Part shown: positions 5,830-48,647 of the stretch, piece after piece
Numbering within the stretch: the first letter of the stretch is position 1
Layout of the letters: every line of letters begins with the position of its first letter
Notes under the pieces: model-generated
Databases searched by the model: none
Seen by the model: the letters and a program-made list of their open reading frames with translations, nothing else
Told to the model about the DNA's origin: nothing
Translations under genes and position numbers: made by a program
Assembly: GCA_009845425.1 (NCBI GenBank)
Contig: VXZQ01000014.1
Location: 207,783 to 271,782, forward strand
Direction of reading: 5' to 3'
DNA from: Holophagales bacterium
Lineage (GTDB): Bacteria; Acidobacteriota; Thermoanaerobaculia; Multivoradales; Multivoraceae
DNA length: 64,000 bases

Positions 5830-6879
5830 ATGCCGCGTCTCTTCGTCCTCATGCCCTTTTCGCCGGACCTCGAGCCCGTCTATGAGCGCCTCTTCAAAGA
5901 GCCATTCGAGAAAGCTGGTTACGACGTGAGCAGGGCGAAGGACATCGACAGCCAGCGGAACATCCTTGAGGACATTATTGAGTCTGTACGGGATAGCGAT
6001 CTGATACTAGCGGACCTTACAGACTTGAATGCCAATGTGTTCTATGAACTAGGAATCGCACATGCCTTCGACAAGAATGTGGTTCTAGTCAGCCAAGAGA
6101 TAAGTAGCTTACCTTTCGATCTGCAATCCTACCGCGTCGTTCGCTACAGCACCAGCTTCACCGAGATGGAAGAAGCCGTCCAACACATGGAGGACCGTGC
6201 GCGGAAGATCATCTCCGGCGGGATGAAGTTCGCCAATCCAGTTGCGGACTTCGCGGACTCGGTGGCTTCACCTTTCGCGGAAGCGGAAGAGGAGGACGCT
6301 CCAACTGAAGAGGACGAGGACGAGCGTCGCGGCATTCTGGACTTTCAGGCTGACTTCCTAGAGAACGTGGAAACCCTCGGAGCCCTGGTTGGCGACGGCA
6401 CCAAGCGAATTGAGGGTATGAGCGAACGCGTTTCGGCTGCCAACGAACGCATCACGGGAGTCGAGTTCGGCCAGCCTAGTCGGCAGCGTCGGACGATTCG
6501 GGACCTGGGATTCTCCCTGGAGAAAGACGCGGCATGGTTCAAGGACTTCGGTAGCAGATACTACGATGTGCTGGCGGAAGTAGAAGATGCTGTCGTCGGA
6601 ATGTTCAGCACTAAGAGGCACCTTGATGGGGAGAGCCGGGAGGAGTTGATTCTATTCATAGATGTGACGGAGAAGACAGAAAGCCAACTCTCGGATGCAG
6701 CGGCCAATTTCCAGAGCCTGATAGCGGCGATTGACGGAGTGCCGAAGATCGAGCGCAGGTTTGACCGAGGCAGTCGTGCACTGGCAAGAGAGCTTGAGAC
6801 CTACATAGACAACATCGAGTTGTCGATTGCTGTCATAACGAGATCAAGAAACCTGGCCAAGAAGATGTTGGGTGACTAG
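5830..6879 (+). CDS. DNPH1 (Rcl) / nucleoside 2-deoxyribosyltransferase-like N-terminal domain fused to an acidic linker and a ~190-aa helical domain of unknown function; candidate nucleotide-targeting defense effector
   Basis: N-terminus ...LILADLTDLNANVFYELGIAHAFDKNVVLV...PFDL... parallels the DNPH1 core (VVAEVTQPSLGVGYELGRAVALGKPILCL) including the catalytic-type YELG Glu. Acidic linker EAEEEDAPTEEDEDE. Lowest GC in the window (~47%). Confidence 0.6.
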   Translation: MPRLFVLMPFSPDLEPVYERLFKEPFEKAGYDVSRAKDIDSQRNILEDIIESVRDSDLILADLTDLNANVFYELGIAHAFDKNVVLVSQEISSLPFDLQSYRVVRYSTSFTEMEEAVQHMEDRARKIISGGMKFANPVADFADSVASPFAEAEEEDAPTEEDEDERRGILDFQADFLENVETLGALVGDGTKRIEGMSERVSAANERITGVEFGQPSRQRRTIRDLGFSLEKDAAWFKDFGSRYYDVLAEVEDAVVGMFSTKRHLDGESREELILFIDVTEKTESQLSDAAANFQSLIAAIDGVPKIERRFDRGSRALARELETYIDNIELSIAVITRSRNLAKKMLGD

Positions 6880-7169: not shown

Positions 7170-8075
7170 CTACGCGCAGTTGCAGAGTTCGATGAAGAAG
7201 GCGCGGACGGTGTCGAGGAACTCGGGAGAGCTCAGGGTGGTCATGTGGTTGGCGCCTTCGATGACGTGGAGGCGGTGCTCCTTCATCACGTCGACCAGGG
7301 CGTCGGCGTTGGGCTTCAGGGGATCGTCGCTGCCAATGATGTTGAGGGTCGGCACCTTGTTGATGCGGAGGAGTTCGGCGTTCACGTCGAGGGCGGGCAT
7401 GCCGCGGACGACGGCTGCCAGGGCCATCTGGTCGTTCGCGGCGACCATCGCCTGGCCGATCGCCTGAACCTGTTCAGGGGTCGGCGGTTCCTCGCCGGGC
7501 CACAGGAACTCGACGAGAGGGCCGCCGCCCTTTCCCGCCTCGAGGGAGGCGGCCAGCGCGTCGAACATCGCGTCGTCGCGCAGTTCGGGGCTCGGCCAGC
7601 CGGCGCCGCCGACCACGGCGGACATGAGCCGGTCAGGTGCCAGGGCGACGAGCTTCATCGTGATGAAGCCACCCATCGAGTAGCCGACGACGTGGGCCTG
7701 CTGCAGCCGCAGATGATCGAGCAGGTCGACGACGTCCAGAGCCATCCGTTCGCCGTAGCTCGCGGGGTCGTGGGGCTTGCCGCTCATGCCGTGGCCGCGC
7801 TGGTCGACGGCGATGACCTGGAACTCCTCGGCCAGCCGGCCGATGATGCCGGCGGCGCCCCAGTTCGAGGCGGCGGTGCCGGTAATGCCGTGAAGCAGCA
7901 CGACCGGGTCGCCGCGGCCTTCGACGACGTAGTGGATCTCGACGCCGTCACTGGCCGTGAACGACCGGGTCGAGGCTTCGCCTTGCGCGTGAGCGCCGGC
8001 GAAGGCGACTGTGAGCACTAGCGCCGCCAGGACGGCAGCGAACATCGACCGCGGTTTCTTCGTATGGATCATCAT
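7170..8075 (-). CDS. Secreted alpha/beta hydrolase
   Basis: Signal peptide, HG oxyanion box (VVLLHG), nucleophile elbow GYSMGG. Start chosen at MMIHTKK (8075). Confidence 0.8.
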   Translation of the reverse strand: MMIHTKKPRSMFAAVLAALVLTVAFAGAHAQGEASTRSFTASDGVEIHYVVEGRGDPVVLLHGITGTAASNWGAAGIIGRLAEEFQVIAVDQRGHGMSGKPHDPASYGERMALDVVDLLDHLRLQQAHVVGYSMGGFITMKLVALAPDRLMSAVVGGAGWPSPELRDDAMFDALAASLEAGKGGGPLVEFLWPGEEPPTPEQVQAIGQAMVAANDQMALAAVVRGMPALDVNAELLRINKVPTLNIIGSDDPLKPNADALVDVMKEHRLHVIEGANHMTTLSSPEFLDTVRAFFIELCNCA

Positions 8076-8131
8076 GGGTCCGATGTTACGCTGCCGCGGG
8101 ACGCCACTCGGATCACCAGTCGCAGGAATCC

Positions 8132-8917
8132 ATGGACATCGAGAGCGCAGCACGGCGCGTCCGCGAAGACGGCTACACCGTCGAGCCGGACTTTCTGAGC
8201 GAGGAGACGCTGGAGCGGTTGCGCCGTGATCTCGCGCCCGTCTTCGAGGCGATCGGCAGCCGGATGACGGACGACTACGGCCAGCAGACGATCCATACGC
8301 ACAACCTGCTGGCCAAGACGCGGGCCGTCGACGAGCTGCTCATGGACGATCGTCTGCTGGGGCTGGTGGAGGCGGTGCTCGGCCCCGATTACCAGGTCTC
8401 CGGCGTCGCCGCGATGCGGCCCGGACCGGGAGACCGTCCCCAGCGGATGCACCAGGACGACGGCCACTATCCGCTTCCGCGCCCGCACGTTCCGCTGATC
8501 GCCAACACGCTGATCGCCCTCGATCCGTTCACGGTGGAGAACGGGGCCACGGAGATCGTTCCCGGCAGCCATCGCTCGGCCGATCCGGTCGATCCCGACG
8601 TGCCGACGTTGACGGTGGAGATGCCGGCCGGGGCGCTCTTCCTCTGGGACGGCGCCGTCTGGCACCGGGGCGGCGGCAACTCGACGCAGAGCGGGTATCG
8701 ACGCTCCCTCAACTTCAACTTCAACCTGGCGTGGCTCAAGCAGCGGGAGAACCAGTTCGTCGGCGTGCCGTGGGAAGTCGTGGTGGAAATGCCCGAGAAG
8801 CTGCAGGCGTTGATCGGTTACAAGCTGACCAACCGCGGTCTGGGCACGGTGGACTACCGCAACCCCATCGAGACCGTGAAGCGGCGGTTGGCGGAGACAA
8901 GGGGGATGAGCAGATGA
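8132..8917 (+). CDS. Phytanoyl-CoA dioxygenase (PhyH) family Fe(II)/2-oxoglutarate oxygenase
   Basis: PhyH-like HxD...H pattern (MHQDDGHY ... VWHRGGGN). Confidence 0.75.
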   Translation: MDIESAARRVREDGYTVEPDFLSEETLERLRRDLAPVFEAIGSRMTDDYGQQTIHTHNLLAKTRAVDELLMDDRLLGLVEAVLGPDYQVSGVAAMRPGPGDRPQRMHQDDGHYPLPRPHVPLIANTLIALDPFTVENGATEIVPGSHRSADPVDPDVPTLTVEMPAGALFLWDGAVWHRGGGNSTQSGYRRSLNFNFNLAWLKQRENQFVGVPWEVVVEMPEKLQALIGYKLTNRGLGTVDYRNPIETVKRRLAETRGMSR

Positions 8918-9381
8918 CAGCAGCATCCGCGACGGAAACCAGAGATAGCGAATCGAAGCCGCGGTCGGTGGTTGAGTCGGCCGTCGAAACGGCCCACAAG
9001 GTGGCGCTCGCCGGCGCCGGCGTAGCGGGCGAGGCGGCAGATGTGGGCGCCAAGGTCTTCGACCGGCTGGTCGCCCGCGGCGCGAAGGTCGAGAGCCAGG
9101 GCAGGGAGTCCCTGAGCGACTGGCGGGACAAGGCCGAGGAGAAGGTTCAGCAGGTGCGTTCCGCGGCCGAGAAGGGGATCGAACAGACCCGGGTCAAGGC
9201 GCGGACGGGAATCGACGAGCACCTGGAGCGCCGACTCGAGAAACTCGGCGTGCCCGGCCAGGCGGACCTGGAGGCCGTGATCGAACGGCTGAGCGCGATC
9301 GAGGCGCGGCTCGATGCGCTTGAGAAGCCGAAACCGCGGCGGCGGGCGGCGAAGAAGAAGACGCCCGCGAAGGCCGGGTAG
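8914..9381 (+). CDS. Polyhydroxyalkanoate granule-associated protein (phasin, PhaF-like) with Lys/Ala-rich histone-like tail
   Basis: LAGAGVAGEA...KVFDRLVARGAKVE...LGVPGQADLEAV...AKKKTPAKAG matches the phasin family pattern. ATGA start/stop overlap with the upstream gene. Confidence 0.75.
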   Translation: MTAASATETRDSESKPRSVVESAVETAHKVALAGAGVAGEAADVGAKVFDRLVARGAKVESQGRESLSDWRDKAEEKVQQVRSAAEKGIEQTRVKARTGIDEHLERRLEKLGVPGQADLEAVIERLSAIEARLDALEKPKPRRRAAKKKTPAKAG

Positions 9382-9417: not shown

Positions 9418-12102
9418 TTACGCCGCGCGGCGGCGGGTTCGTCGTTCGACCCGCACGGCGCGGAGGATCCGGCTCACCGTGGCCGGTCGGACACCTTCGC
9501 TGATGCGTTCCTCCGCCAGCTCGAAGGCGAGCTTCCACTGCTGCCGCAGGATCGCGTGAGCGGCGAGGAAGCCGTGGCGACGGTCGTACATGTGGGTGGC
9601 CTCGGAAGTCACGCCGTTCACTTCCAGCACACGGAGACCTTCGCCGCACTGGAGGGCCTCGGCGTTCGGAACGCGCACGTCGAAGCGGCCGAAGTCGAAC
9701 CCGTCGTAGGCGGTGCAGATCGCGTTCATCGCTCGTTCCAGTTCCGGGGTGTGCAGGTCGTTGGCGTCCAGGAAGATCGTCCCGCGCGAGTGGGCGCCGA
9801 CCTGGGTCAGCTCGACTCTCTCGCCGGCGGCAGGGACATGCGTCGCCGCTTCGGGATGCTCCCGCCGGTAGATGTGCGCGATGGCGACCGCGCGCGGGTC
9901 GTCCAGGATCAACCGCTCCAGCGTGCTGGTTCCGTCGCCGGTCACGGTGGGGCGGACCTTGTGGGTGATCGAGAAGACGTGCCCGTCGCGCCGGCCTGGG
10001 TGGCGGGCCCAGAACACGCCGTACTCCTCGCCCGCCATGTATTCCTGCGCGAGCGCGGGCCCGGGGGTCGCTGCGAAGAACGTCGCCGCTTCGGCCTCGG
10101 AGCGCGCGACGGCGACGCCGCGGCCGCGCTCGCCGGTGTCCGGCTTGAGCACGACCGGGTAGCCGAGGTTCTCGTCCTCCAGGAACCGGTCCAGGGCCGC
10201 GATGCGTTCCTCCGGGCCGCCGGTCGGCATGCGCCTCCAGGCCGGCAGCGCCTCGCCGATGCCGGCCAGGCCTTCGAGGATGTCGCTCTTCGACTCTCCG
10301 AACAGGCCGCCCAGGGGCATCGCGGGGTTGATCGCAGTGAACGCCGTCAGGTTGCCGCGCCGCAGGCCCCGCCACAGGATGTAGAGGGCGAGAGGCGGGT
10401 AGAACGCCCACATCGGCCAGAACTCCCAGTGCCGGATGCGTAGCAGACGGCCGCGCCAGAGGCGGCGGCCGCGCCAGGTGAACAGCGGCACGACGACGCC
10501 ACGTACGGTGAAGATGACGAGAGCCAGAGCCAGCACGGCGCCGAGAAGGCCCCCCGGCAGGCGGCCGCCGAAGCGTTCGACCGCCTCGCGTCCCAGGACC
10601 GCGTTGACGCCGACGAAGGCCGGGGTCCAGATCGCCACGGCGAGGGCGAAGTAGAAGCAGAAGCGGAGCAGGCTCGTGCGCAGGATGCCGGCGGCGAGGC
10701 AGGTCGGCAGCCGCGTTCCGGGCAGGAACCGGCTGACCAGGACGACGACCAGGGCCCGCCGGCGCAGCCACGCCGAGGCTTCTTCGAATCTGGCCTCGCT
10801 GACCCACCACTTGAAGGGTGGCAGCCTGAGAGCCGGGCGGCCCAGGACGCGCGCCAGCCAGGCGATGCCGAGGTCGCTGCTCAGGATGCCGACGTAGCAG
10901 GCGGCGACGGCGACCGGGAAGTCGAGCCGGCCCTGGGCCACGAGCAGGCCGGCGGTGATGCAGGTCAGGTCCTCGCTGGCGTACGCGGCGAACACGAGGA
11001 GCAGGAAGACGATCAGCAGGGCCGGCCCGGTGAACGGCGGCAGGTCCAGGTCGTCGAACGGCAGTGCCGCCCGTCGTAGCCGCTCCGATTCGGCGTCGGT
11101 GCGGGTCGGCGCCTCGCCGGCCTCGACCCGGCTCAGGAAGTCCTCGATACGGGCCGCCAGGTGCTCGCCGCCGCGGAACAGGAAGAAGTGGCTGTCCGGC
11201 CGCATCCACAGCTCGCTGTGCGGCACGATCCGGTGGTGCTCCCTTGCCGCGGCGGCCGGCACCAGCGGGTCCTGCGCGCCGTGGATGATGAACACCGGCG
11301 CTTCGAGGGACTCCAGGATGCCGCGCAGCGGCCGCTGGTCCGTGTCGTAGAAGTTGCGGGCGTAGGAGCGGGCGACGGCCATGTCGAGGGCGCCGAAGTG
11401 GGGGACCAGGTTGCGCACTCCCCAGAACAGGCCGAGCTGAAGGCCGTGCAGGCCGTGGTTGACCCGGTAGTCGCCGAGGAGCTCGAGTTCCTGGACGCCG
11501 ATCGAGGACATGAGGATGACGGAGGCCACTCGCTCGGGCGCCTCGTCGGCGAGATGCAGGGCGACCGCGCCGCCCATGCTGAAGCCGAGGACGTGGAACC
11601 GTTCGACGTCCAGTCGATCGAGCAGCTTGAGCGTCGAGTCGGCGTGACCGCGCGAGGAGTAGTCGGCCACTCGGTGGTCGGAGGCGCCGAACCCGGGGAG
11701 GTCGGGCGCGATGGTACGCCGCCGGAGAGCGTCGGAGACGCCGTTTGGTTGACTCGGGGAGGAGTAGTGCACGCTGGATTTGAGGCGGTGGAAGTTCTGG
11801 GAGCTGCCGGGCGACCCATGGAGGAGCACGAGGGGCAGCGACTCCGGGTTCGGTGAGTCGGTTTCATCCCATGCGATGCGCAGTGTGTCCTCTCCGTTCG
11901 GTGCAGGGATCTCCATCGTCGGCTTGAAGCTGAATGGGGAACGCACCAGTCTGAACTCGCCGTCCGGGGCGGGAAACTCGAGCAGAGTCATGGACGGGTG
12001 CTGCTCGCGGACGAATCGCACGACCGTCGAGACAAGAAGCAGCGCGCAGTAGGCGCCAACCGCGATGCGAAGCCAGCGGCGGCGCCACCTGGAAGTCGTC
12101 AT
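9418..12102 (-). CDS. Tri-domain membrane protein: alpha/beta hydrolase + DedA/SNARE-associated membrane domain + C-terminal ATP-grasp ligase domain
   Basis: LVLLHGSPGS / GFSMGG (hydrolase). VSRFLPGTRLPTCLAAGIL (DedA R-F/I-x-P-G-x-R motif). VVLKPDTGERGRGVAV ... EYMAGEEYGVF ... LEVNGVTS (ATP-grasp). 4-nt overlap with the upstream acyltransferase gene. Confidence 0.8.
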   Translation of the reverse strand: MTTSRWRRRWLRIAVGAYCALLLVSTVVRFVREQHPSMTLLEFPAPDGEFRLVRSPFSFKPTMEIPAPNGEDTLRIAWDETDSPNPESLPLVLLHGSPGSSQNFHRLKSSVHYSSPSQPNGVSDALRRRTIAPDLPGFGASDHRVADYSSRGHADSTLKLLDRLDVERFHVLGFSMGGAVALHLADEAPERVASVILMSSIGVQELELLGDYRVNHGLHGLQLGLFWGVRNLVPHFGALDMAVARSYARNFYDTDQRPLRGILESLEAPVFIIHGAQDPLVPAAAAREHHRIVPHSELWMRPDSHFFLFRGGEHLAARIEDFLSRVEAGEAPTRTDAESERLRRAALPFDDLDLPPFTGPALLIVFLLLVFAAYASEDLTCITAGLLVAQGRLDFPVAVAACYVGILSSDLGIAWLARVLGRPALRLPPFKWWVSEARFEEASAWLRRRALVVVLVSRFLPGTRLPTCLAAGILRTSLLRFCFYFALAVAIWTPAFVGVNAVLGREAVERFGGRLPGGLLGAVLALALVIFTVRGVVVPLFTWRGRRLWRGRLLRIRHWEFWPMWAFYPPLALYILWRGLRRGNLTAFTAINPAMPLGGLFGESKSDILEGLAGIGEALPAWRRMPTGGPEERIAALDRFLEDENLGYPVVLKPDTGERGRGVAVARSEAEAATFFAATPGPALAQEYMAGEEYGVFWARHPGRRDGHVFSITHKVRPTVTGDGTSTLERLILDDPRAVAIAHIYRREHPEAATHVPAAGERVELTQVGAHSRGTIFLDANDLHTPELERAMNAICTAYDGFDFGRFDVRVPNAEALQCGEGLRVLEVNGVTSEATHMYDRRHGFLAAHAILRQQWKLAFELAEERISEGVRPATVSRILRAVRVERRTRRRAA

Positions 12103-12938
12103 GGAAACCGGCGGTCGCGGGTCGCCGCGGCGGCTTCCTCACTCGAGACCATGGGCCGGAACGCGGCCGCCATCCGCTCCCGCAGCCGGCGGGCGAGTTC
12201 CTTGCGGTCCGGGTGCCGGAACTGTCCTTCTCCGAACTCGAGTTCGGTATCGATCCTGCGGAGCTTGAGCAGCTCGGGCGCGTGCGGCGTCAGCGGCATG
12301 TCGCCCCACCAGGCGACGCTCAGGAAGGCGGGATCCTCGTCATCCGGCGTCTCGTAGCGCACAACGGCCCAGTGGACGGGCAGTTGTCTGGCGGCGGCGG
12401 GCGCGAGCAGGGAGGGCTTCAGCGTCGCCACGGCGTCTCCCGGTGTCGAGGTGCCCTCTGGGAACAGGATGACCGGATCGCCCGCCTCCAGGGCCTCGGC
12501 GATCTGGTCGGCTACCCGGGTGACGTCACGGCGCCGGCCGCGGTCGACGAAGAGGATGTCGACCGTCCGGCACACGGTTCCGGCCAGGGGCCAGTCCGCG
12601 ATCTCGGCCTTGGAGACGAAGCGCGCCGGCGAGTGTGCGGCGAGAACCAGGATGTCGATGTAAGAGATGTGGTTCGAAACCAGCAGGCAGGGCGGCGCTG
12701 GCGGCGCACCCCGGACCGTGACCCGGCAGCCGAGCACGGCCAGGCACGCGCGGCCCCAGTGGCGCATGATGCCGGAGCGGACCTTCCGCCAGGTCGGGTA
12801 GCGGCGTGCGAGAAAGGGCTTCAGGACGAACAACGGCAGCCACGCGGCCAGAGTGAGCACGAGGAACGCCGGGCCCCGCCAGAACAGCCGCCACAGCCGC
12901 ACGAGGCGCCTGGGGAAGTGGAGGTTGAGGCCGGACAC
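12099..12938 (-). CDS. PlsC-family lysophospholipid acyltransferase (OlsA-like O-acyltransferase)
   Basis: HxxxxD motif region (LVSNHISYIDILVLA) and FPEGTS motif. ATGA overlap with the downstream fusion gene. Confidence 0.8.
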   Translation of the reverse strand: MSGLNLHFPRRLVRLWRLFWRGPAFLVLTLAAWLPLFVLKPFLARRYPTWRKVRSGIMRHWGRACLAVLGCRVTVRGAPPAPPCLLVSNHISYIDILVLAAHSPARFVSKAEIADWPLAGTVCRTVDILFVDRGRRRDVTRVADQIAEALEAGDPVILFPEGTSTPGDAVATLKPSLLAPAAARQLPVHWAVVRYETPDDEDPAFLSVAWWGDMPLTPHAPELLKLRRIDTELEFGEGQFRHPDRKELARRLRERMAAAFRPMVSSEEAAAATRDRRFP

Positions 12939-12963: not shown

Positions 12964-13818
12964 CTACGTGGCAGCCGGCGGCGCCGTAGCGGCCGCCGGA
13001 GCCTGGTCGAGTCCGAAGATCAGCCGGATGCGCCGGCTGAGCGTGGCCGTGTCCATCAGCACCAGGTAGTCGATCGTCTTGAAGTCGCGGTCGATTGCCG
13101 GCCGGCTGCAGACGAGGGCGCCGTAGCGCAGGTAGGTTGCGAACAGGGGTGGTATCTCGACCTCCGGAACTCTCTCGACCGTCTCGGGCGGCGCCTCGCA
13201 GCGGGCGTGCTCGAGGACCGGTACGTCGAGGTCCGGCCGGACCTTGCCCGCCGCGACGAGCTGCCGGTAGAGCCGGATGCCGGCGGCCTGATCCTGGCTG
13301 GTCAGGGAGCAGCAGCCGAACAGGTAGCGGAGCCGGTTGTGGACCATGTAGCGGGCCAGGCCCTGCCAGAGCAGGAACAGAACGGTCCGCTTCCGGTGGC
13401 GGCGATGGATGCAGGCTCGGCCGATCTCGACCGACTGATCGAGCAGGCTGCTGGGCAGGGCGTCCAGGTCGTACTCGATGGCCGAGTAGAAGCCGCGGCC
13501 GCGGGCCGCCATGGCGGCCGTCTGCATCCGGTAGGTGCCGATCATCGTGCCGTCCGTCCGCTCGACCAGCATGTGGTGGCAACTCGCGTCGAAGTCGTCC
13601 GTGTCGCGGCCGGTGTCGTAGGACTCGTCGAGACCCTCGCCCAGCTCCAGGTTGAAGACCTCGAAGCGCAGGGTCAGCAGCCGGTCGATGTCCTCGGCGG
13701 TGCGCGCGAAGCGCAGGCGGTAGGGGCCGGCTCCGATTTGTCCGTCGGGCAGGTGTTCGGGGCTGGGGATACCCGGTGAGTCGGCGTTCCGGGAGAGGAA
13801 GCCGGCCGGATCGGTCAT
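12964..13818 (-). CDS. OlsB/GlsB-family GNAT N-acyltransferase (lyso-aminolipid / N-acyl amino acid synthase)
   Basis: YRLRFARTAEDIDRLLTLRFEVFNLELGEG...DxxDxxCHHMLV is characteristic of the OlsB-like family. Start at MTDPAGF (13818). Confidence 0.7.
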   Translation of the reverse strand: MTDPAGFLSRNADSPGIPSPEHLPDGQIGAGPYRLRFARTAEDIDRLLTLRFEVFNLELGEGLDESYDTGRDTDDFDASCHHMLVERTDGTMIGTYRMQTAAMAARGRGFYSAIEYDLDALPSSLLDQSVEIGRACIHRRHRKRTVLFLLWQGLARYMVHNRLRYLFGCCSLTSQDQAAGIRLYRQLVAAGKVRPDLDVPVLEHARCEAPPETVERVPEVEIPPLFATYLRYGALVCSRPAIDRDFKTIDYLVLMDTATLSRRIRLIFGLDQAPAAATAPPAAT

Positions 13819-14597
13819 GAGCGGGTCCCCGCCGCGGCGCGAATCGACTCGGCGCCGAAGATCACAAGAAACAGGCGGTCGTCTTCGTCGTGGAGCAGGC
13901 CGGTGACTTCGACAGGCTGGCCCACCCAGTCGAGCACTTCCGGGCCGACGGGTCGGCCGGAGGCGTGCATCAGATGGACCAGTTGCCGCTCTCCGCTCTT
14001 CGTTCTGACCAGGAGGGCCGCTGGAATGCCTCCGCGGATACAGAGGGAGGCGCAGTCTCGGTGAGGCTTGCCGCGGCCCGGCTTCATCGCGCCCAGGTAG
14101 CACTTCGTGTCGACGATTTCCCCTGTGAGGGTCTGGGCGTCTCCCGGAGAGTCGGGCGCTTCCGCGGCGCCACCTTCGCCGACCTGCTCCGAGAGTTCGA
14201 AGGAGTGCACTTCGAGCATTGCGGCCTCGGGATTCCGGATCAGCGTGCCTTCGAGATCGATCTTCCGTGAGGTGCCGGACTGCGACGGCAGGCCAGGAGC
14301 CGCGTCTACGTCGAGTCCATGCTTGCCGACAGCGACCAGAAGATACCCGTCGGCCGGTCCGTCCGCCGTGATCAGCCGGGGATTGGGATCGACGACCAGT
14401 TCGCCCGAGTAGTCGCGCACCGTGCCGTACTCGAACACTCCCTCGTCGAACCGTTCGAGGAGCAGGGCCAGGCAGAGGCCGATCGCCGCGGTCAGGGCGA
14501 CCAGCCCGATCGCCAGCCGGCGCGCGAACCGGCGGATTCCGGGCGGCGTCTCGTCGACGTAGCCGACGTAGAAGCCGTCGGGGCGGTCGCCAGTCAC
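13815..14597 (-). CDS. Hypothetical membrane-anchored protein
   Basis: N-terminal TM helix (LAIGLVALTAAIGLCLALLL). GTGA overlap with the upstream gene stop and ATGA-type overlap with the downstream OlsB-like start. Start inferred at GTG 14597. Confidence 0.5.
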   Translation of the reverse strand: MTGDRPDGFYVGYVDETPPGIRRFARRLAIGLVALTAAIGLCLALLLERFDEGVFEYGTVRDYSGELVVDPNPRLITADGPADGYLLVAVGKHGLDVDAAPGLPSQSGTSRKIDLEGTLIRNPEAAMLEVHSFELSEQVGEGGAAEAPDSPGDAQTLTGEIVDTKCYLGAMKPGRGKPHRDCASLCIRGGIPAALLVRTKSGERQLVHLMHASGRPVGPEVLDWVGQPVEVTGLLHDEDDRLFLVIFGAESIRAAAGTRS

Positions 14598-15664
14598 GAA
14601 GGCTCCCCGGCGCCGGTTGCGACGTCGAGCCGTGCCGGCTCGGCGTGAGTTCCGGGCGGATTGGGCCGCGGATCGATCAGCACGCGGCTCCCTTCTACAC
14701 GGACATTGAAGGTTGGGATCGTCTCGGTGAACGGCGGCGGCGAGCAGCCGTCCTCGGGACGGTACTGGTAACCATGCCACGGGCAGGTGATGCAGCCGTC
14801 GATGACCTGGCCTTCGCCCAGCGGGCCGTTCTGGTGCTGGCAGACGTTGGAGACGGCCGCGATCCGTTCGCCGCCGTCCGCGCGATAGCGGAACACGGCC
14901 ACCCGCTCACCGCTGAGGAGGAAGATGCGGGCCCGGTCGAGCGGGATGTCGGAGACGGCACAGACGTCGACCGTGGAGCCTTCCGCCGCGGCGGCCGGCA
15001 TCGGTGCGCGCTCGCGCCAGCCGGCGACGATGTGCAACGAGGCGATGCCGGCGAAGCCGATACCCAGCAGGACGGCGAGCACCGGCGGTCGCTCCGGGGC
15101 CTGCAGGCTGCCCAGCGCGACATGCACGAGGATCAGTCCGTACGCGACGTAGACCAGCATGTGGAGCGACTTCCAGACCGGCGCGGTCAGGTTCGCGAGC
15201 CAGAAGTCGTGCGAGGTCGCCGCCAGCAGGAACAGGATGGCGAGCGCCGCGAGGCCGAGCGCCTGAAACGGGAATTGGGTCAGGCTGTCGTAGTTCCCAT
15301 TGCTCGCCAGCACGCTGACGAGTGGATTCAGGACCCCGAGGCCGTGGAACTGGACGATCGAGAATCCGCCATGGGCGAGAGCCAGCAGAAACACGCAGAC
15401 GCCGAGGTGCCGGCGGTTGTAGAGCAGGGGCAGGAACCGCGTGTCCAGCCGGCAAAGCGGTCCGATGGCGAGCACGACGTGCAGCAGCAGCAGGGCGCCG
15501 GCGCCGAAACCGCGGATCAGCAGCGTTTCGAGCGTTGCCTGAGGTCGGGTCGCGACCCCGATGCCGACGAAGAGGCCGAGGAACACGAGGATGCCGGCCG
15601 CGATCGTCAGGTCGTAGAGCTTCTTGTTGCGGTTCCAGAGGACCGCCTGGTACTCGGCGCTCAC
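14594..15664 (-). CDS. Ferric-reductase-like transmembrane domain fused to Rieske [2Fe-2S] domain
   Basis: Six predicted TM helices with paired His (MsrQ/FRD-like). C-terminal CQH-x16-CPWH Rieske motif. GTG start. Confidence 0.75.
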   Translation of the reverse strand: MSAEYQAVLWNRNKKLYDLTIAAGILVFLGLFVGIGVATRPQATLETLLIRGFGAGALLLLHVVLAIGPLCRLDTRFLPLLYNRRHLGVCVFLLALAHGGFSIVQFHGLGVLNPLVSVLASNGNYDSLTQFPFQALGLAALAILFLLAATSHDFWLANLTAPVWKSLHMLVYVAYGLILVHVALGSLQAPERPPVLAVLLGIGFAGIASLHIVAGWRERAPMPAAAAEGSTVDVCAVSDIPLDRARIFLLSGERVAVFRYRADGGERIAAVSNVCQHQNGPLGEGQVIDGCITCPWHGYQYRPEDGCSPPPFTETIPTFNVRVEGSRVLIDPRPNPPGTHAEPARLDVATGAGEPS

Positions 15665-26732: not shown

Positions 26733-28754
26733 TTGGCCGGCCTGACCAGAGGACTCCACGATCGCCCGGAGTCGTCTCCAACTCCGCCGCCGAAGGTCAT
26801 CGACCTGATGATCGACGCGGCCGTCCGCAATCTGCTGGGCCAGTGCCGGGATGACGGTCACTGGTGCGCGGAGCTCGAGGGCGACACGATTCTGGAGTCG
26901 GAGTACGTGCTGCTGCTCCACTTCCTGGGGCGCGGCGACGACCCGCGCGTCGCGGCGTGCTGCGGGCGGTTGCGCAGTCAACAGCAGCAGGGCGGCGGCT
27001 GGGCCATCTACCCGGACGGCCCGACCGACCCGAGCGTCTCGGTCAAGGCCTACCTGTGCCTGAAACTCGCCGGCGACGATCCTCAATCGCCGCGGATGGC
27101 CGATGCGCGCCGGGCGATCCTGCGGGCGGGCGGACTGCGCGCGTGCAACTCGTACACGAGGCTCTACCTGTCGATCTTCGGGCTGTGGACCTGGCGGCGG
27201 TCGCCCGCGGTGCCTCCGGAACTCATCCTGCTGCCGCGCTGGTTCTACTTCAACCTCCACGAGATGTCCTCCTGGACCCGGACGATCGTGGTGCCGCTGT
27301 CGGTGATCTGGGCCCTCAGGCCGAGCGTGCCGCTCGATGTGACGCTGGACGAACTTCAGGGGGATTCCAGGCCCGGACGCAAACGGACGACCGTCTACGA
27401 GTCGTTCTGGTCCTTCGTGTTCGCAGCCGTCAACGGCCTGATCAAGCTGGTGGAGGTCGTGGGCCCCGTACCCGGGTGGCGGCGCCCCGCCCTGAAGAAG
27501 GCGGAGGAGTGGCTGATTGCCCACGTCGAAGGCTCCGACGGTCTGGGTGCGATCTTCCCGGCGATGCTCAACACGGTCATCGCGCTTCGCTGCCTCGGCT
27601 ACGAGGAGAGTCATCCGCTGGTCCAGGGCCAACTGCGGGAACTCGAGCGGTTGGAGATCGAAGAGGCCGGAGAGATGCGGCTCCAGCCTTGCCTGTCGCC
27701 GGTCTGGGACACGGCGCTGTCGGTGGGCGCCCTGCTCGCGGCGGACATGGAAGGGGGCGAGGCGCCCATCCAGGATGCGCTGGCGTGGCTGCTCGAGCGT
27801 GAGGTCACGGTTCCCGGCGACTGGCGGGAGAAGAGCCTCCAGGAGGCGCCGGGTGGCTGGTGTTTCGAGTACCGGAACGATCTCTACCCCGACTGTGACG
27901 ACACGGCGGAAGTCCTGGTGTTGCTGGCCTCGGTCCGGGGCCGCACCGACGAGCTGGAGGCGCGGAGGCAGGCCGCGACGGCACGCGGGCAGCGCTGGCT
28001 ACTTGGTCTTCAGAACCCGGACGGAGGCTGGGCCTCGTTTGACCGCTGCTGCGACAAGGAGGTCCTGACCCTCATCCCCTTCGCGGACCACAACGCGATG
28101 ATCGATCCGAGCACACCCGACATTACCGCCCGGGTGATCAGCGCCCTGTTGGCTCATGGACACGATCCGCGCGATGAACCGGTCCGACGCGCGACGGACT
28201 ACCTGCTGCGCGAGCAGGAGAGGGATGGGAGCTGGCCGGGGCGCTGGGGCGCGAACGGCATCTACGGCACCTGGCTCGCCCTCTCCGCGCTGGCGCCACT
28301 TGCGGCACGCCCGGGCATCCGCGCAGGGGAACGTCTGAGCCGGGCATGCCGGCGCGGCCGGCGCTGGCTGCTTGCGGTGCAGAACGAGGACGGTGGTTGG
28401 GGGGAGTCGCTTCGCTCCTACGATGATCCCGACTTCAGGGGCCGCGGGCGCAGCACGGCTTCGCAGACCGCCTGGGCGATGATGGGTCTGATCGTGTCGC
28501 TCGAACCGCGGCCCTGGAGCGACGACGCGGCCCGGACCGTGGCGGCGCTGGACCGGGCAGTGGCCTTCCTCCAGGAGCGCCAGCGCGACGACGGTTCGTG
28601 GTACGACCGCGACTGGACCGGCGTAGGCTTCCCCGGCGTGTTCTACCTCCGCTACCACGGCTACGCGCAGTACTTCCCGCTCGAGGCGCTGGCTGCCTAC
28701 AGGCGACTGGCCGTGCCGGAGCCTGACGCGATGCCCGCGAACGGACCCTTCTGA
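26733..28754 (+). CDS. shc: Squalene-hopene cyclase
   Basis: QW repeats and the catalytic DxDDTA motif (YPDCDDTAEV). Collinear with A. acidocaldarius SHC. Start uncertain (TTG 26733 or downstream ATG 26808). Confidence 0.9.
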   Translation: MAGLTRGLHDRPESSPTPPPKVIDLMIDAAVRNLLGQCRDDGHWCAELEGDTILESEYVLLLHFLGRGDDPRVAACCGRLRSQQQQGGGWAIYPDGPTDPSVSVKAYLCLKLAGDDPQSPRMADARRAILRAGGLRACNSYTRLYLSIFGLWTWRRSPAVPPELILLPRWFYFNLHEMSSWTRTIVVPLSVIWALRPSVPLDVTLDELQGDSRPGRKRTTVYESFWSFVFAAVNGLIKLVEVVGPVPGWRRPALKKAEEWLIAHVEGSDGLGAIFPAMLNTVIALRCLGYEESHPLVQGQLRELERLEIEEAGEMRLQPCLSPVWDTALSVGALLAADMEGGEAPIQDALAWLLEREVTVPGDWREKSLQEAPGGWCFEYRNDLYPDCDDTAEVLVLLASVRGRTDELEARRQAATARGQRWLLGLQNPDGGWASFDRCCDKEVLTLIPFADHNAMIDPSTPDITARVISALLAHGHDPRDEPVRRATDYLLREQERDGSWPGRWGANGIYGTWLALSALAPLAARPGIRAGERLSRACRRGRRWLLAVQNEDGGWGESLRSYDDPDFRGRGRSTASQTAWAMMGLIVSLEPRPWSDDAARTVAALDRAVAFLQERQRDDGSWYDRDWTGVGFPGVFYLRYHGYAQYFPLEALAAYRRLAVPEPDAMPANGPF

Positions 28755-42819: not shown

Positions 42820-43191
42820 GTGATCGAGAGCATCAAGATCGGGAAGTCGGCAATCGGGGGCGAGACGGTTGGCGACGTAACCGTCTGGGTGCCGGAAGGG
42901 CGGGTCGACGCCTCCAGTGCTCCGGACCTGGAGCAGGCAATGACGTCCGAGATCGCGGAAGGCGGAGAGGCAGTCGTCCTCGATCTGAGCCGCACCCGCT
43001 ACATGAGCAGCGCCGGCCTCCGCGTCGTACTCGTCGTGGCTCGCCAACTGCAGGCGCGCAAGGGGAAGTTCGCCGTCTGCGGCCTGAACGACGAAGTGAA
43101 GGAGCTCTTCGAGGTTTCCGGCTTCAGCCTGATCGTGGGCATCGAGGCGGACCGCGACGCCGCGGTCGCCGCCGTCCAGCAGTCCGGCTGA
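42820..43191 (+). CDS. STAS-domain anti-sigma factor antagonist (SpoIIAA/RsbV-like)
   Basis: VLDLSRTRYMSSAGLRVVLV contains the conserved phosphorylatable Ser motif (DxS...SSxGL). AAAGAGG Shine-Dalgarno before GTG 42820. Confidence 0.75.
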   Translation: MIESIKIGKSAIGGETVGDVTVWVPEGRVDASSAPDLEQAMTSEIAEGGEAVVLDLSRTRYMSSAGLRVVLVVARQLQARKGKFAVCGLNDEVKELFEVSGFSLIVGIEADRDAAVAAVQQSG

Positions 43192-43197
43192 CCTTCG

Positions 43198-44532
43198 CTA
43201 CAGCGTCCAGCCGTCCCGGTAGGCCGGCTCGATGTACTCCCGCGGGACCTCGACGCCGTTCGTCACCTTCAGCTTCTTCGGATTCCAGACGATCTCCTGC
43301 TGCGTGCGAACCGCCAGGTTGCCGAGCAGCGCGGTCTCGGTCATCGGCCCTGCGTGATCGGCGAAGTTGGAGCCGTCGGGGTTCGTCGTACCGGCCTTGA
43401 TCGCGTCGATCCACTGCTTGTAGTGCCCTTCGGTCCGTTCGTAGACCTGGGGCAGCGGGTTCTTCGTGATCTTCTCGTGCAGCTTTGAGGGGTAGATCGT
43501 GGGCCTGCCGGCGTAGATGTCGGCGACGATCACGCCCTCGGTGCCCACGAAGAGCTGACCGCTGTTGCGTGGCGGCCACTTGCCTTCCCACACCTTGGGC
43601 ATCGCCGGCGTGAGGTTTCCGTCGCGCCAGACGACGGTCATCTTCGGCCGGTTGCCTCGAGCCGGATACTCGAACGTGATCCGCGTGGCGGCGGGAGCCG
43701 ACTCCTTGAACAGCGGCGTCGATTCGGCATGGACCGACGACGGGTCCCGCAGGTCGAAGATCCAGAACGCCGCGTCCATCGCATGGCAGGCGATGTCGCC
43801 GATGGCGCCGGTGCCGAAGTCCCACCAGCCGCGCCAGGCGAAGGGGTGGTAGTACTCGGAGTGGTAGGGGCGTTCCGGCGCCGGGCCGAGCCACAGGTCC
43901 CACTTGACATGGTCGGGCACCTCGTGGACTTCCTTGGGGCGCGGTATCGCCTGCGGCCAGATCGGCCGGTTGGTCCAGTACTCGACGCGGTTCACCTCGC
44001 CGATCACGCCACCCTCGATCCACTCGCGGATGAGGCGGGTGCCTTCGGCGGCGTGGCCCTGGTTGCCCATCTGGGTCGCCGTGCCGGCCTTGCGTGCCGC
44101 CTTGCCGACCATCCGCGCCTCTCCGATCGTGCGCGTCAGGGGCTTCTGCGTGAAGACGTGGAGGCCGCGCTCCAGAGCCGCAACGGTGATCGCGGCGTGC
44201 GTGTGGTCGGCGGTCGAGACCAGCACCGCGTCCAGGTCGCTGTGGGCGTCCAGCAGCTCCCGGTAGTCGTGGTAGCGGGCCGCGTCCGGGTGGGCGTTCA
44301 TCGTCTCCTCGGCGCGCTTCCAGTCGATGTCGCAGAGGGCGACGATGTTCTCGCTGGCGACGCCGGCGACGTCGCTGCGGCCCTTGCCGCCGGCGCCGAT
44401 GGCCGCGATGTTCAGCCGGTCGCTGGGGGCCTCCTCGCCGCGTCCGAGGACGTGGCGGGGGACGATCATCCAGCCGGCGCCAGCGGCGGCAGCGCCGAGC
44501 ACGCTGCGACGGCTCAGGTCTTGTTCGGGCAT
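43198..44532 (-). CDS. Gfo/Idh/MocA family oxidoreductase with Tat signal peptide
   Basis: Twin-arginine RRSVLGAAAAGAG, then Rossmann NIAAIGAGGKG. Confidence 0.8.
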   Translation of the reverse strand: MPEQDLSRRSVLGAAAAGAGWMIVPRHVLGRGEEAPSDRLNIAAIGAGGKGRSDVAGVASENIVALCDIDWKRAEETMNAHPDAARYHDYRELLDAHSDLDAVLVSTADHTHAAITVAALERGLHVFTQKPLTRTIGEARMVGKAARKAGTATQMGNQGHAAEGTRLIREWIEGGVIGEVNRVEYWTNRPIWPQAIPRPKEVHEVPDHVKWDLWLGPAPERPYHSEYYHPFAWRGWWDFGTGAIGDIACHAMDAAFWIFDLRDPSSVHAESTPLFKESAPAATRITFEYPARGNRPKMTVVWRDGNLTPAMPKVWEGKWPPRNSGQLFVGTEGVIVADIYAGRPTIYPSKLHEKITKNPLPQVYERTEGHYKQWIDAIKAGTTNPDGSNFADHAGPMTETALLGNLAVRTQQEIVWNPKKLKVTNGVEVPREYIEPAYRDGWTL

Positions 44533-44611
44533 GAGGAAGTGCCTTTCGCTTTGGTGGTGTTCGAGTGTGCGTTAGGTTAGCGCACTCGTGACGAACGCGA
44601 AGGTCAGTTGG

Positions 44612-46597
44612 ATGTGCGTGTTTGCGGCGGCGCTGGTCGGTTTCGTCGCCGGCGCCGCCGGGGCCGAGACCGGCGAGCAGGGTCGCTCCGTCTACGGCGA
44701 GTGGCGGCATCACGGCGGCGACCACGCCTCGAGCCGCTACTCGCCGCTGACCCAGATCGACGGTTCGAACTTCAGCCGGCTCGAGGTCGCCTGGCGCTGG
44801 CGCACAGCGGACCACGAGGTGCCGCTGGACGTGCTTCCGGGCTACGACACGGGGTTCTATCGCTCCGTTCCCTTGATGATCGGCGGCCGCCTGTTCGCAC
44901 CGACCAGCCTGGGCCAGGTCGCCCTGCTCGACCCGGCGACTGGCGAGCAGGAATGGGTCTACAACCCGAAGACCTGGGAGCGCGGCGGCACCACGATGCG
45001 GCCGGTCGGCGCTCGCGGCATCGAGTACTGGTCGGACGGCGAGAAAGAGCGCCTGTTCGTCGCCACGATCGGCCGCCAGCTCGTCTCGATCGACGCCGCC
45101 ACCGGACTGGCCGACCGCGCGTTCGGCGAGGATGGCGTGGTCGACCTGGCGCAGGATCTGGGGCCGGGCGACTACGCGATCCGCCACGTCACGCACGGCG
45201 CGCCGCCGATCGTCGTCGGCACCAGCGTGATCGTCGGCTCGAAGATCTTCGACTACTCGATCAGGAGCGACGCACCGCCCGGCCATGTGCGTGCCTACGA
45301 CGTCCACACGGGCGAGTTCAAGTGGCGCTTCAACACGATTCCCCGGGACGACGAGTACGGCGTCGAGACCTGGGAGAACGAGTCCTGGCGCACGGCCGGC
45401 AACGCGAATGTGTGGACGTCGATGAGCGCGGACCACGAACTGGGATACGTCTACCTGCCGACCAGCACGCCGTCGAACGACTACTACGGGGCCGACCGGC
45501 CGGGCGACAACCTGTTCGCCGAGAGCCTGGTCTGCGTCGACGCGGAGACGGGCGAACGCATTTGGCACTTCCAGACCGTCCGCCACGGCATCTGGGACTA
45601 CGACATCGCTTCGGCCCCGAACCTGCTCGACATCGTCGTCGACGGCAAGCTGATCAAGGCCGTCGCGCAAGTCTCGAAGACCGGCTTCACGTACGTGTTC
45701 GACCGCGCCACCGGCGAGCCGGTGTGGCCGATCGAGGACCGGCCGGTGAATCACAAGTCGACGGTGCCGGGCGAGAAGCTGTCAGAGACGCAGCCGTTCC
45801 CGACGAAGCCACCTGCCTTCGAGCGGCAGGGCGTCAGCGAGGATGACCTGATCGACTGGACGCCGGAACTGCGCGAAGAGGCACTGAAGATCGCGGAGAA
45901 GCTGGTGCTCGCGCCCATGTTCCCGCCCCTGATCGTCAAGGGTGAGGGCGGCAAGGAGGGCGTGATGGTCGTCCCGGGGGCCGCCGGTGGCGCGAACCAC
46001 CCCGGAGCGTCCGTCGACCCGAGGACCGCTGTGCTCTTCGTCGAGTCGCAGAACCGGCCCACCGGGATGTCGCTGATCGAGCCGGATGCGGCGCGCCGTC
46101 CGGACTGGCGGTACGTGATCGACTACGTCGACACGGGTGGGCCACAGGGCCTGCCCCTGACGAAGCCGCCGTACCGGACGATTACCGCGATCGACCTGAA
46201 TCGTGGCGAGCACCTCTGGCGCATCCCTGTCGGTCCGGGCCCGAAGAACCATCCGGCCATCGCTCACCTGAACCTCGGCGACATGGGCACGATCTACTTC
46301 GGTATGCCGGCGGACGGCGGTCTGCTCGTCACCCGCACGCTCCTGATCGGCTTCGTGGCCCTGCCCGACGAGGACAATCCCCGCACCAGCAGCGGCGGGC
46401 TCCTGCGCGCCTACGACAAGGCGACAGGCGAACTGCTCGCCGAAGTGAGAACGGACGTCTGGCTGCACGGCCCGCCGATGACCTACATGCATGAGGGCCG
46501 GCAGTACATCGTCATCGCCGGGGGCGGCGCCCGCAATCGCCGGATCCCCGATGAGTTGATCGCCTTTGCGTTACCGGAGTCCCCGACCGATGCTTAA
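44612..46597 (+). CDS. PQQ-dependent dehydrogenase (paralog of 21753-23819), secreted
   Basis: Same signature as the first copy (GEWRHHGGDHASSRYSPLTQI...LEVAWRW). Start at ATG 44612 after the signal-peptide Met. Confidence 0.85.
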   Translation: MCVFAAALVGFVAGAAGAETGEQGRSVYGEWRHHGGDHASSRYSPLTQIDGSNFSRLEVAWRWRTADHEVPLDVLPGYDTGFYRSVPLMIGGRLFAPTSLGQVALLDPATGEQEWVYNPKTWERGGTTMRPVGARGIEYWSDGEKERLFVATIGRQLVSIDAATGLADRAFGEDGVVDLAQDLGPGDYAIRHVTHGAPPIVVGTSVIVGSKIFDYSIRSDAPPGHVRAYDVHTGEFKWRFNTIPRDDEYGVETWENESWRTAGNANVWTSMSADHELGYVYLPTSTPSNDYYGADRPGDNLFAESLVCVDAETGERIWHFQTVRHGIWDYDIASAPNLLDIVVDGKLIKAVAQVSKTGFTYVFDRATGEPVWPIEDRPVNHKSTVPGEKLSETQPFPTKPPAFERQGVSEDDLIDWTPELREEALKIAEKLVLAPMFPPLIVKGEGGKEGVMVVPGAAGGANHPGASVDPRTAVLFVESQNRPTGMSLIEPDAARRPDWRYVIDYVDTGGPQGLPLTKPPYRTITAIDLNRGEHLWRIPVGPGPKNHPAIAHLNLGDMGTIYFGMPADGGLLVTRTLLIGFVALPDEDNPRTSSGGLLRAYDKATGELLAEVRTDVWLHGPPMTYMHEGRQYIVIAGGGARNRRIPDELIAFALPESPTDA

Positions 46598-47291: not shown

Positions 47292-47310
47292 ATCGCCGGG
47301 TGCGCGGGTC

Positions 47311-48621: not shown

Positions 48622-48647
48622 CGGGGCAGTCTAAGGTGCGATCCGCG

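Follow-up and report, generated by a model that had tools for sequence, protein, structure and literature searches.

A predicted inner-membrane protein that joins an alpha/beta-hydrolase, a DedA core and an ATP-grasp ligase, encoded in an olsB-olsA-type operon of a Holophagales bacterium

We analysed a stretch of 64,000 nucleotides from a Holophagales bacterium (contig VXZQ01000014.1, positions 207,783 to 271,782; hereafter the window), which carries on its minus strand a gene for a fusion protein of 894 amino acids (aa). In this protein an N-terminal anchor helix is followed by an alpha/beta-hydrolase domain, a DedA core and an ATP-grasp ligase domain. Sequence comparisons indicate that the fusion is a genuine inner-membrane protein and that it is widely conserved. 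Its three domains are folded, their catalytic residues are intact, conservation extends across the whole family, and the gene is linked to homologues of olsB and olsA. Since the fusion sits in an operon of the olsB-olsA type, its most likely role is the tailoring and movement of aminolipids. We tentatively propose that it tailors the aminolipids made by OlsB and OlsA (OlsBA) and translocates them across the inner membrane. Taken as a whole, this proposal falls somewhat short of an even chance, and its single chemical steps are less sure than the whole; we infer the identity of the substrates and the direction of flow. The parts of the fusion are:

9418..12102, minus strand: whole fusion open reading frame (ORF), stop codon included; ATG start, 894 aa; anchor helix, hydrolase, DedA core and ATP-grasp domain
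12013..12069, minus strand: N-terminal membrane anchor, aa 12-30, preceded by the arginine-rich tail MTTSRWRRRWLR; from a hydropathy scan
11113..11955, minus strand: alpha/beta-hydrolase domain, aa ~50-330, predicted to be periplasmic; from Pfam, an invariant triad, and profile and fold matches
10480..11040, minus strand: DedA/VTT core, aa ~355-541; from the VTT_dom match and invariant charged residues
10306..10479, minus strand: arginine-rich juxtamembrane segment and WEFWP...YPP interfacial helix, aa 542-599, joining the DedA core to the ligase
9421..10305, minus strand: ATP-grasp ligase domain, aa 600-894, predicted to be cytoplasmic

An earlier note on this DNA had read an alpha/beta hydrolase, a DedA domain and an ATP-grasp domain, in that order, from one 894-aa ORF, and this order is borne out by Pfam, the AlphaFold model and a family profile match. 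The full-length AlphaFold model (mean pLDDT 86.6) displayed the three folded modules that the earlier note had expected. Gene calls on 11 public contigs give exactly the same 894-aa product, and a protein search with the fusion returned 1,988 matches at E <= 1e-5. Among the best 120 of these 1,988 matches, most are ~850-950 aa long, 45-92% identical to the query and collinear with it, with all three parts kept. The closest relatives (<=93% identity) come from metagenome-assembled genomes of Thermoanaerobaculia and 'Candidatus Multivorans', while a scan of one genome per species found relatives in at least 566 genomes, complete single-chromosome assemblies included. Homologues thus occur not only in other Acidobacteriota but also in Planctomycetota, Gemmatimonadota and Verrucomicrobiota. 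A comparison of 44 sequences revealed invariant residues in each of the three domains as well as in the intervening linkers. That the fusion is an artefact, with separate genes joined through a frameshift, an overlooked stop codon or chimeric assembly, is favoured by nothing specific, only by the general point that long ORFs arise easily at 70% G+C, and the recurrence on 11 contigs, the hundreds of collinear full-length homologues (some of them in complete single-chromosome assemblies), the invariant residues throughout and the confident single-chain model leave it practically no chance; the comparative sequence data rule out a frameshift or a missed stop.

Homologues are publicly annotated as 'alpha/beta fold hydrolase', 'VTT domain-containing protein' or 'pimeloyl-ACP methyl ester carboxylesterase/membrane protein DedA'. 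The ATP-grasp part scores below its Pfam cutoff, and therefore these names refer to the hydrolase or DedA parts only. In the Pfam scan, the first two domains proposed by the earlier note scored above their cutoffs and the third was left unconfirmed: RimK (PF08443) reached 16.3 bits against a gathering cutoff of 21, which a few homologues do exceed (P0058 and P0142). The ATP-grasp assignment was instead upheld by an AlphaFold model of residues 545-894 and by a profile match to the G domain of cyanophycin synthetase.

This C-terminal model (pLDDT 92.7, pTM 0.90) has the central and C-terminal domains of the ATP-grasp fold. The profile of the C-terminal family matched the G domain of cyanophycin synthetase (E 3.9e-11), from the lysine of PVVLKPD through the E-x-N magnesium site, and K653, D808, E827 and N829 align to cyanophycin synthetase, so that both the ATP-binding lysine and the magnesium site are present. 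Conserved positions include K605, K653 (in VVLKPD), Q686, E693, the GDG loop at 722-724, R806-x-D808 and E827-x-N829; among them K605, K653, R806-x-D808 and E827-x-N829 are invariant across the family. The best structural and sequence matches of the ligase are the G domain of cyanophycin synthetase (CphA), RimK, LysX and ArgX, with which it shares the ATP-binding lysine, a GDG-x-ST loop and a D...E-x-N magnesium site. Each of these relatives works on a tethered substrate, whose carboxylate it activates for the addition of an amino acid. The fusion differs from cyanophycin synthetase and RimK in its predicted membrane tether and in having neither an N-terminal pre-ATP-grasp domain nor the remaining domains of CphA. 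The cyanophycin synthetase model TIGR02068 gave 33.8 bits against a cutoff of 850, with aa 644-733 as the sole matching region, and the full architecture of that enzyme is absent.

The place that the pre-ATP-grasp N-domain holds in ATP-grasp enzymes is occupied here by the linker. In the AlphaFold models, residues 545-620 form helices only, with no N-domain beta-sheet, and a pre-ATP-grasp substrate domain was not found. Within the linker, W559, E560, W562, Y568, N592 and P593 are invariant or nearly so. The WEFWP segment is still present in P0137, a protein of 376 aa that appears to be an ATP-grasp-only form (a single cluster representative).

The hydrolase domain was recognized by Abhydrolase_1 (aa 90-200, E 4e-29, 102.4 bits against a cutoff of 25.8) and by Abhydrolase_6 (aa 91-309, 61.2 bits against 26.3). 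Its HGSPG oxyanion motif (95-99), the GFSMGG nucleophile elbow with Ser175, Asp278 and His305 are invariant in the 44 sequences, and in alignments with esterases of known structure the serine, aspartate and histidine fall on catalytic residues. A family-specific motif at aa 248-260, ARNFYDTDQRPLR, is placed after the nucleophile and before the acid; its strongly polar character suggests that the hydrolase may recognize a polar head group. The top profile match in the PDB was a PHB depolymerase (8ynv, 1.6e-25), and the top matches also included 6i8w (7.5e-23), an entry labelled only 'Alpha/beta fold hydrolase' which we take to be PlaF. PlaF is a single-pass, membrane-anchored periplasmic phospholipase A1 of Pseudomonas aeruginosa, in which, as in the fusion, an N-terminal anchor helix precedes an alpha/beta-hydrolase. 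The similarity is at the generic level of Abhydrolase_1, and the fusion differs in continuing into a transporter and a ligase and in having its own motif. Foldseek confirmed the esterase fold through matches to many esterases and hydrolases, with a TM (target) of ~0.7 and E ~1e-11. The full-length Foldseek search against the PDB was saturated by alpha/beta-hydrolases and uninformative on the other domains; a separate C-terminal model was made.

The DedA core matched VTT_dom (PF09335) over aa 385-498 and, at 48.5 bits, exceeded the gathering cutoff of 33.9. The AlphaFold model appears to contain the helix pattern of two re-entrant tips. The first tip is acidic, with invariant E377 and D378, whereas the second carries R458 and R464, six residues apart and also invariant. 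These arginines belong to SRFLPGTRLPT (aa 457-467), the motif by which the earlier note had identified the domain, and it does fall within the DedA core. The COG0586 subfamily of DedA proteins has a pattern with an R130/R136 pair, and its R-x5-R spacing equals that of the fusion (Todor et al., 10.1101/2023.01.04.522824). Among NCBIfam DedA models the best match was UptA (NF052604; E 1e-13), at 51.9 bits and hence below the equivalog cutoff of 250. The fusion shares with the DedA transporters UptA and YqjA the VTT domain, the acidic first tip, the arginine pair and, as far as can be inferred, the orientation.

Four independent lines of evidence suggest a protein with its N-terminus inside, a periplasmic hydrolase, a DedA core and a cytoplasmic ligase, so that the two enzymatic domains would lie on opposite sides of the membrane. 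Across the 44 homologues, the mean net charge is +2.9 in the N-terminal tail and -0.7 past the anchor helix, which argues for an N-in orientation of that helix. It is -0.8 ahead of the DedA core, +4.9 in the central DedA loop and +5.9 in the segment after the core. Cysteines are nearly absent from the hydrolase domain and common in the ligase domain of the same sequences. In P0145, a variant of 715 aa that has the anchor, the hydrolase, a single transmembrane helix and the ATP-grasp domain but no DedA core (a single cluster representative), the hydrolase should lie outside, because one helix separates the two domains and the ATP-grasp domain requires cytoplasmic ATP. Variants without the hydrolase open with signal-peptide-like segments ahead of the DedA core. 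Cysteine accessibility experiments on Escherichia coli YqjA showed a DedA core that begins outside and ends in the cytoplasm (10.1101/2021.10.18.464800), and those on human TMEM41B one that begins in the lumen and ends in the cytoplasm (10.1101/2020.12.18.423352). The inverted topology, with a cytoplasmic hydrolase, would misplace either the +4.9 and +5.9 loops and the ATP-requiring domain or the arginine-rich N-terminal tail, and it clashes with the single-helix variant.

The genes upstream of the fusion tie it to aminolipid synthesis. Together with the fusion they form a minus-strand array of five genes, with 4-nt overlaps at three junctions according to the public gene calls:

14594..15664, minus strand: protein of 356 aa with a ferric-reductase-like transmembrane domain and a Rieske [2Fe-2S] domain; its gene heads the apparent operon of five
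13815..14597, minus strand: 260-aa membrane-anchored protein, by public gene call; 4-nt overlaps with both neighbours
12964..13818, minus strand: OlsB-like amino-acid N-acyltransferase, 284 aa by public gene call
12099..12938, minus strand: OlsA-like lyso-aminolipid O-acyltransferase, 279 aa; its stop codon overlaps the fusion start codon

The earlier note had proposed translational coupling of the fusion to an acyltransferase gene, and the upstream TGA indeed overlaps the ATG (ccATGAcg). It had called this neighbour PlsC-type; an acyltransferase it is (Pfam Acyltransferase, E 6e-21, 75 bits against a cutoff of 23), not a generic PlsC but an OlsA-like enzyme preceded by an OlsB-like gene. Two NCBIfam OlsA models aligned to it over its full length (E 4e-41 and 3e-39; 140.9 and 134.7 bits against an equivalog cutoff of 300). 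The OlsB-like protein likewise gave full-length alignments to NCBIfam OlsB models (E 3e-37 and 1.5e-36; 128.9 and 126.3 bits against cutoffs of 350 and 320), lies far nearer to these than to GlsB, and matched Pfam Acetyltransf_5 (E 6e-28, 98 bits against a cutoff of 22.4).

This linkage is kept across lineages. A homologue of olsA, olsB or both lies within 7 kb of the fusion in 66 of the 72 informative loci, and both are found in 62. It persists in 41 of the 47 loci that are less than 60% identical. In distant lineages, two additional genes are found between olsA and the fusion: one is DinB-like and occurs in 34 loci, the other is TANGO2-like and occurs in 19. Neither occurs in the window. The DinB-like protein has ~180 aa; the TANGO2/NRDE-like protein has ~240 aa and, in the one case read (L082), starts with Met-Cys. 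These genes, which also accompany hydrolase-less variants at places where olsBA is not adjacent, were located as follows, and are present in L085-L087 too:

L025, 5722..6968: DinB-like/TANGO2-like insertion
L043, 6348..6884: DinB-like/TANGO2-like insertion, in the cluster of Acidobacteria bacterium Mor1, a cultured carrier
L064, 5600..6900: DinB-like/TANGO2-like insertion, in the cluster of Saltatorellus ferox Poly30, a cultured carrier
L082, 2167..3506: DinB-like/TANGO2-like genes

Searches of the PDB and NCBIfam gave no informative match for either partner. For a TANGO2-like fold, a role as an Ntn-type amidase or amidotransferase is conceivable. No other neighbour is conserved across the loci, and past the close clade there is no downstream partner that would name an amine substrate.

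The ligase module belongs to a large family: clustering at 50% identity gives 2,420 clusters, of which 902 fall below 1e-30. A robust clade of two-domain proteins with only the DedA and ATP-grasp parts (~560-590 aa) is found in Verrucomicrobiota and some Thermoanaerobaculia. As natural variants drop the hydrolase or the DedA core, the constant element of the family appears, from these comparisons, to be the membrane-tethered ligase, with DedA and the hydrolase as added modules. Two-domain genes adjoin olsB or olsBA in two of the three contexts examined. In L087 a DinB-like gene, a TANGO2-like gene and the two-domain gene are followed by OlsB and OlsA on the same strand, and in L086 the same three genes are accompanied by a convergent OlsB gene. 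A metagenome scan with the two-domain variant yielded three short loci only.

Based on these findings, we postulate the following sequence of events. By the established OlsBA pathway, OlsB would N-acylate an amino acid with a 3-hydroxy fatty acid; OlsA would esterify a second fatty acid to it, resulting in an acyloxyacyl aminolipid in the cytoplasmic leaflet. The ATP-grasp module, which the WEFWP helix would keep at the cytoplasmic face of the membrane, would then phosphorylate a carboxylate and couple it to an amine, which may be an amino acid, a taurine-like amine or ammonia. This carboxylate is most likely the free alpha-carboxylate in the head group of the lipid. We propose it because the CphA G domain, RimK and LysX act on a peptide C-terminus, its chemical equivalent. 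An N-acyl amino-acid lipid offers such a terminal carboxylate at the membrane, and in the fusion the soluble substrate domain is swapped for a membrane-interface helix; both points lead us to suggest the formation of a head-group amide. The DedA core would shift the lipid between leaflets, its arginine pair possibly binding an anionic function of the head group. Finally, the periplasmic serine hydrolase may act on the translocated lipid by cleaving or transferring a group in ester or amide linkage, with turnover, remodelling or hand-over to a periplasmic acceptor as the purpose.

It is also conceivable, though we regard it as rather doubtful, that the fusion is a self-contained line that ligates, flips, and hydrolyses or transfers. 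Such a line would either build new head-group-extended aminolipids (capped by a peptide, an amine or an amide) or employ the lipid made by OlsBA as a carrier that is recycled. In this second version, the ATP-grasp domain would load a moiety in the cytoplasm and the alpha/beta-hydrolase would release or transfer it in the periplasm.

Known aminolipid chemistry has a niche for such a ligase. Taurine transfer onto the carboxyl group of ornithine lipids is an ATP-dependent reaction whose gene is unidentified, and Ser-Gly and Orn-Ser-Gly head groups exist (2026 review, PMC12971839). The fusion ligase fits this niche, since ATP-dependent amidation of a head-group carboxyl lacks a gene. The fusion lies in the position of a tailoring enzyme, next to two genes that match the OlsB and OlsA models over their full length. 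The known tailoring enzymes of the Ols pathway (the OlsC, OlsD and OlsE hydroxylases and the OlsG methylase) are neither ATP-grasp nor DedA proteins nor periplasmic alpha/beta-hydrolases, and the taurine transferase that makes cerilipin is still without a gene. OlsI, the alpha/beta-hydrolase O-acyltransferase of the third ornithine-lipid pathway, is a separate enzyme of a cytoplasmic pathway (PMC12493201).

The arrangement is reminiscent of other two-sided lipid systems, by analogy only. MprF is an aminoacyl-phosphatidylglycerol synthase fused to a flippase, and periplasmic aminoacyl-phosphatidylglycerol hydrolases act outside; the logic of a head-group enzyme, a translocator and an outer hydrolase is thus shared. 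There is no homology between the two: MprF uses aminoacyl-tRNA, a GNAT-like synthase and a flippase fold of its own, whereas the fusion has its hydrolase in the same polypeptide, and neither an MprF-type synthase (DUF2156/GNAT-like) nor an MprF-type flippase domain was found in it with Pfam and NCBIfam. LplT-Aas couples a lipid flippase with an enzyme for ATP-dependent re-acylation, the two being fused in many bacteria. The coupling resembles that in the fusion, but the folds are unrelated (an MFS transporter, an acyl-ACP synthetase and an acyltransferase) and there is no periplasmic hydrolase.

Several observations weigh against the proposed role in aminolipid tailoring and translocation. The full-length AlphaFold model has a pTM of only 0.63. 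The OlsB-like and OlsA-like proteins score under the NCBIfam equivalog cutoffs, and the head group may not be ornithine. Furthermore, olsBA is absent nearby in 6 of the 72 three-domain loci. Two further loci hold only the DinB-like and TANGO2-like genes: L085, from a cultured Puniceicoccales strain with a two-domain gene, where olsBA is absent within 7 kb, and L082, a metagenomic contig, where it is absent in the ~3.5 kb of upstream sequence. As these loci keep both partners without olsBA, the ligase-DedA core may be tied more closely to those partners than to the acyltransferases. By its UptA match and its arginine pair, the DedA core is most like the undecaprenyl-phosphate-transporter type, and the transported lipid could thus be phosphate-bearing. 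A literature search found no record of extended-head-group or otherwise unusual aminolipids in these acidobacterial lineages.

One alternative is that the substrate is a glycerophospholipid or a polyprenyl-phosphate-linked lipid, and that the fusion is only co-regulated with OlsBA in a membrane-remodelling programme. Examples would be a tRNA-independent aminoacylation resembling that of MprF, paired with a periplasmic hydrolase, or the breakdown of phospholipids in lipid renovation. The UptA-like arginine pair and the loci without olsBA speak for this explanation. We consider it unlikely, given that the linkage to olsB and olsA holds across phyla and at 45% identity, with genes that often overlap or nearly abut, which is tighter than a regulon, and that the conserved neighbours include no genes for phospholipid synthesis or glycans.

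A second alternative keeps the sidedness of our model and reverses its flow. In an inward salvage or repair route like that of LplT-Aas, the periplasmic hydrolase would make or handle a lyso-aminolipid or a free fatty acid in the outer leaflet, DedA would flip it inward, and the ATP-grasp domain would re-ligate it by coupling a fatty acyl-phosphate to an amine or a hydroxyl, rebuilding the lipid. There is a precedent for such chemistry, as the formation of N-acyl-histidine from free fatty acids in Legionella is credited to an ATP-grasp enzyme acting via an acyl-phosphate (aminolipid review, PMC11631085). In addition, the best relatives of the hydrolase include 6i8w, which we take to be the phospholipase PlaF, and a PHB depolymerase, an enzyme whose substrates are 3-hydroxy acid esters; the cluster also contains both synthetic and hydrolytic genes, the TANGO2-like gene among them. 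However, the closest relatives of the ligase are peptide or amino-acid carboxylate ligases and not activators of fatty acids, OlsB and OlsA already cover both acylations, and nothing indicates the direction of transport. Salvage therefore strikes us as decidedly improbable.

A third explanation is that the ATP-grasp domain is not a lipid ligase, and that it instead makes a soluble product, modifies a protein, or acts as a kinase or as an ATP-binding regulator or energizer of DedA transport. To this we give a slim chance. The acyl-phosphate ligase machinery (R806-x-D808, E827-x-N829 and the lysines) is invariant, and a membrane-interface helix, kept in the ATP-grasp-only variants, replaces the soluble substrate domain; taken together, these features suggest a membrane-borne substrate.

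The two genes at the head of the operon remain to be described. The 260-aa protein had no family match in Pfam or NCBIfam, and its gene is probably part of the same operon as olsB, olsA and the fusion. The first gene matched Ferric_reduct (2e-12) and Rieske (1e-14) in Pfam. Both recur as a pair beside the cluster in ~30 loci, among them loci that are only 45-50% identical (L058, L061, L074 and L076); in L065 the pair lies on the opposite strand. Through the Rieske/ferric-reductase gene, a redox step may possibly be tied to the aminolipid cluster. Downstream of the fusion gene and convergent with it, at 7170..9381, lie genes for a phasin, a PhyH-family Fe(II)/2-oxoglutarate dioxygenase and a second alpha/beta-hydrolase. 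This second hydrolase has a signal peptide and is ~35-40% identical to the hydrolase domain of the fusion over ~100 aa. The synteny of these genes is limited to the close Thermoanaerobaculia clade.

The fusion matched no known defence protein in PADLOC, a scan for promoters and terminators found nothing beyond the shuffled expectation, and no RNA family was found in the window with Rfam. The remainder of the window is ordinary chromosome, encoding a leucyl-tRNA synthetase (LeuRS), a PQQ dehydrogenase, a squalene-hopene cyclase, a single-chain acyl-CoA carboxylase and AcrB. As judged from the squalene-hopene cyclase gene, the organism probably produces hopanoids, which is relevant to its membrane lipid repertoire. 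The 349-aa ORF listed below matched an anti-phage TIR effector model with its N-terminal part and had no Pfam match at 1e-5. The G+C content around it is 0.56-0.58, as compared to ~0.69 in the surroundings, and it may be a horizontally acquired defence-type gene.

5830..6879, plus strand: 349-aa ORF, N-terminal part matching an anti-phage TIR effector model (PADLOC, E 1.8e-8)
26733..28754, plus strand: squalene-hopene cyclase
43124..45754, minus strand: long predicted ORF of 876 aa, no Pfam match at E 1e-5; real, or a high-GC shadow ORF
46976..48907, minus strand: long predicted ORF of 643 aa, no Pfam match at E 1e-5; real, or a high-GC shadow ORF
53702..57151, minus strand: single-chain acyl-CoA carboxylase of 1,149 aa, with biotin carboxylase, BCCP and carboxyltransferase parts

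Each domain of the fusion comes from a known superfamily; the architecture, the five-component cluster and the two-sided chemistry that they imply are undescribed. A full-text literature search found no paper that links DedA with ATP-grasp, OlsB, TANGO2 or aminolipids. In a systematic survey of DedA fusions, the partners are PAP2, rhodanese and pyridine-nucleotide-disulphide oxidoreductase alone, with neither an alpha/beta-hydrolase nor an ATP-grasp partner such as the fusion in the window has (Todor et al., 10.1101/2023.01.04.522824). The earlier note's view of the architecture as unusual and undescribed is therefore right as far as the literature goes, and the spread of its relatives over at least 566 species genomes makes it anything but rare.

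DedA proteins are nearly universal, and their substrates and mechanism are debated. Where a conserved fusion places a ligase and a hydrolase on either side of a DedA core, and its gene lies among those for aminolipid synthesis, a cargo is indicated and experiments have a direct handle. Should the fusion be the self-contained line considered above, it would be the first natural case in which the cargo of a DedA protein is identified by the enzymes fused to it, and its ligase might be the kind of ATP-dependent enzyme that is sought for amidation of the ornithine-lipid carboxylate. To our knowledge, there is no explanation so far of how ornithine-type lipids cross the inner membrane, nor of where di- and tripeptide head groups originate. 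The existence of such a large family in environmentally dominant, poorly studied phyla, under the bare label 'alpha/beta fold hydrolase', suggests that a sizeable part of their membrane biochemistry has been overlooked.

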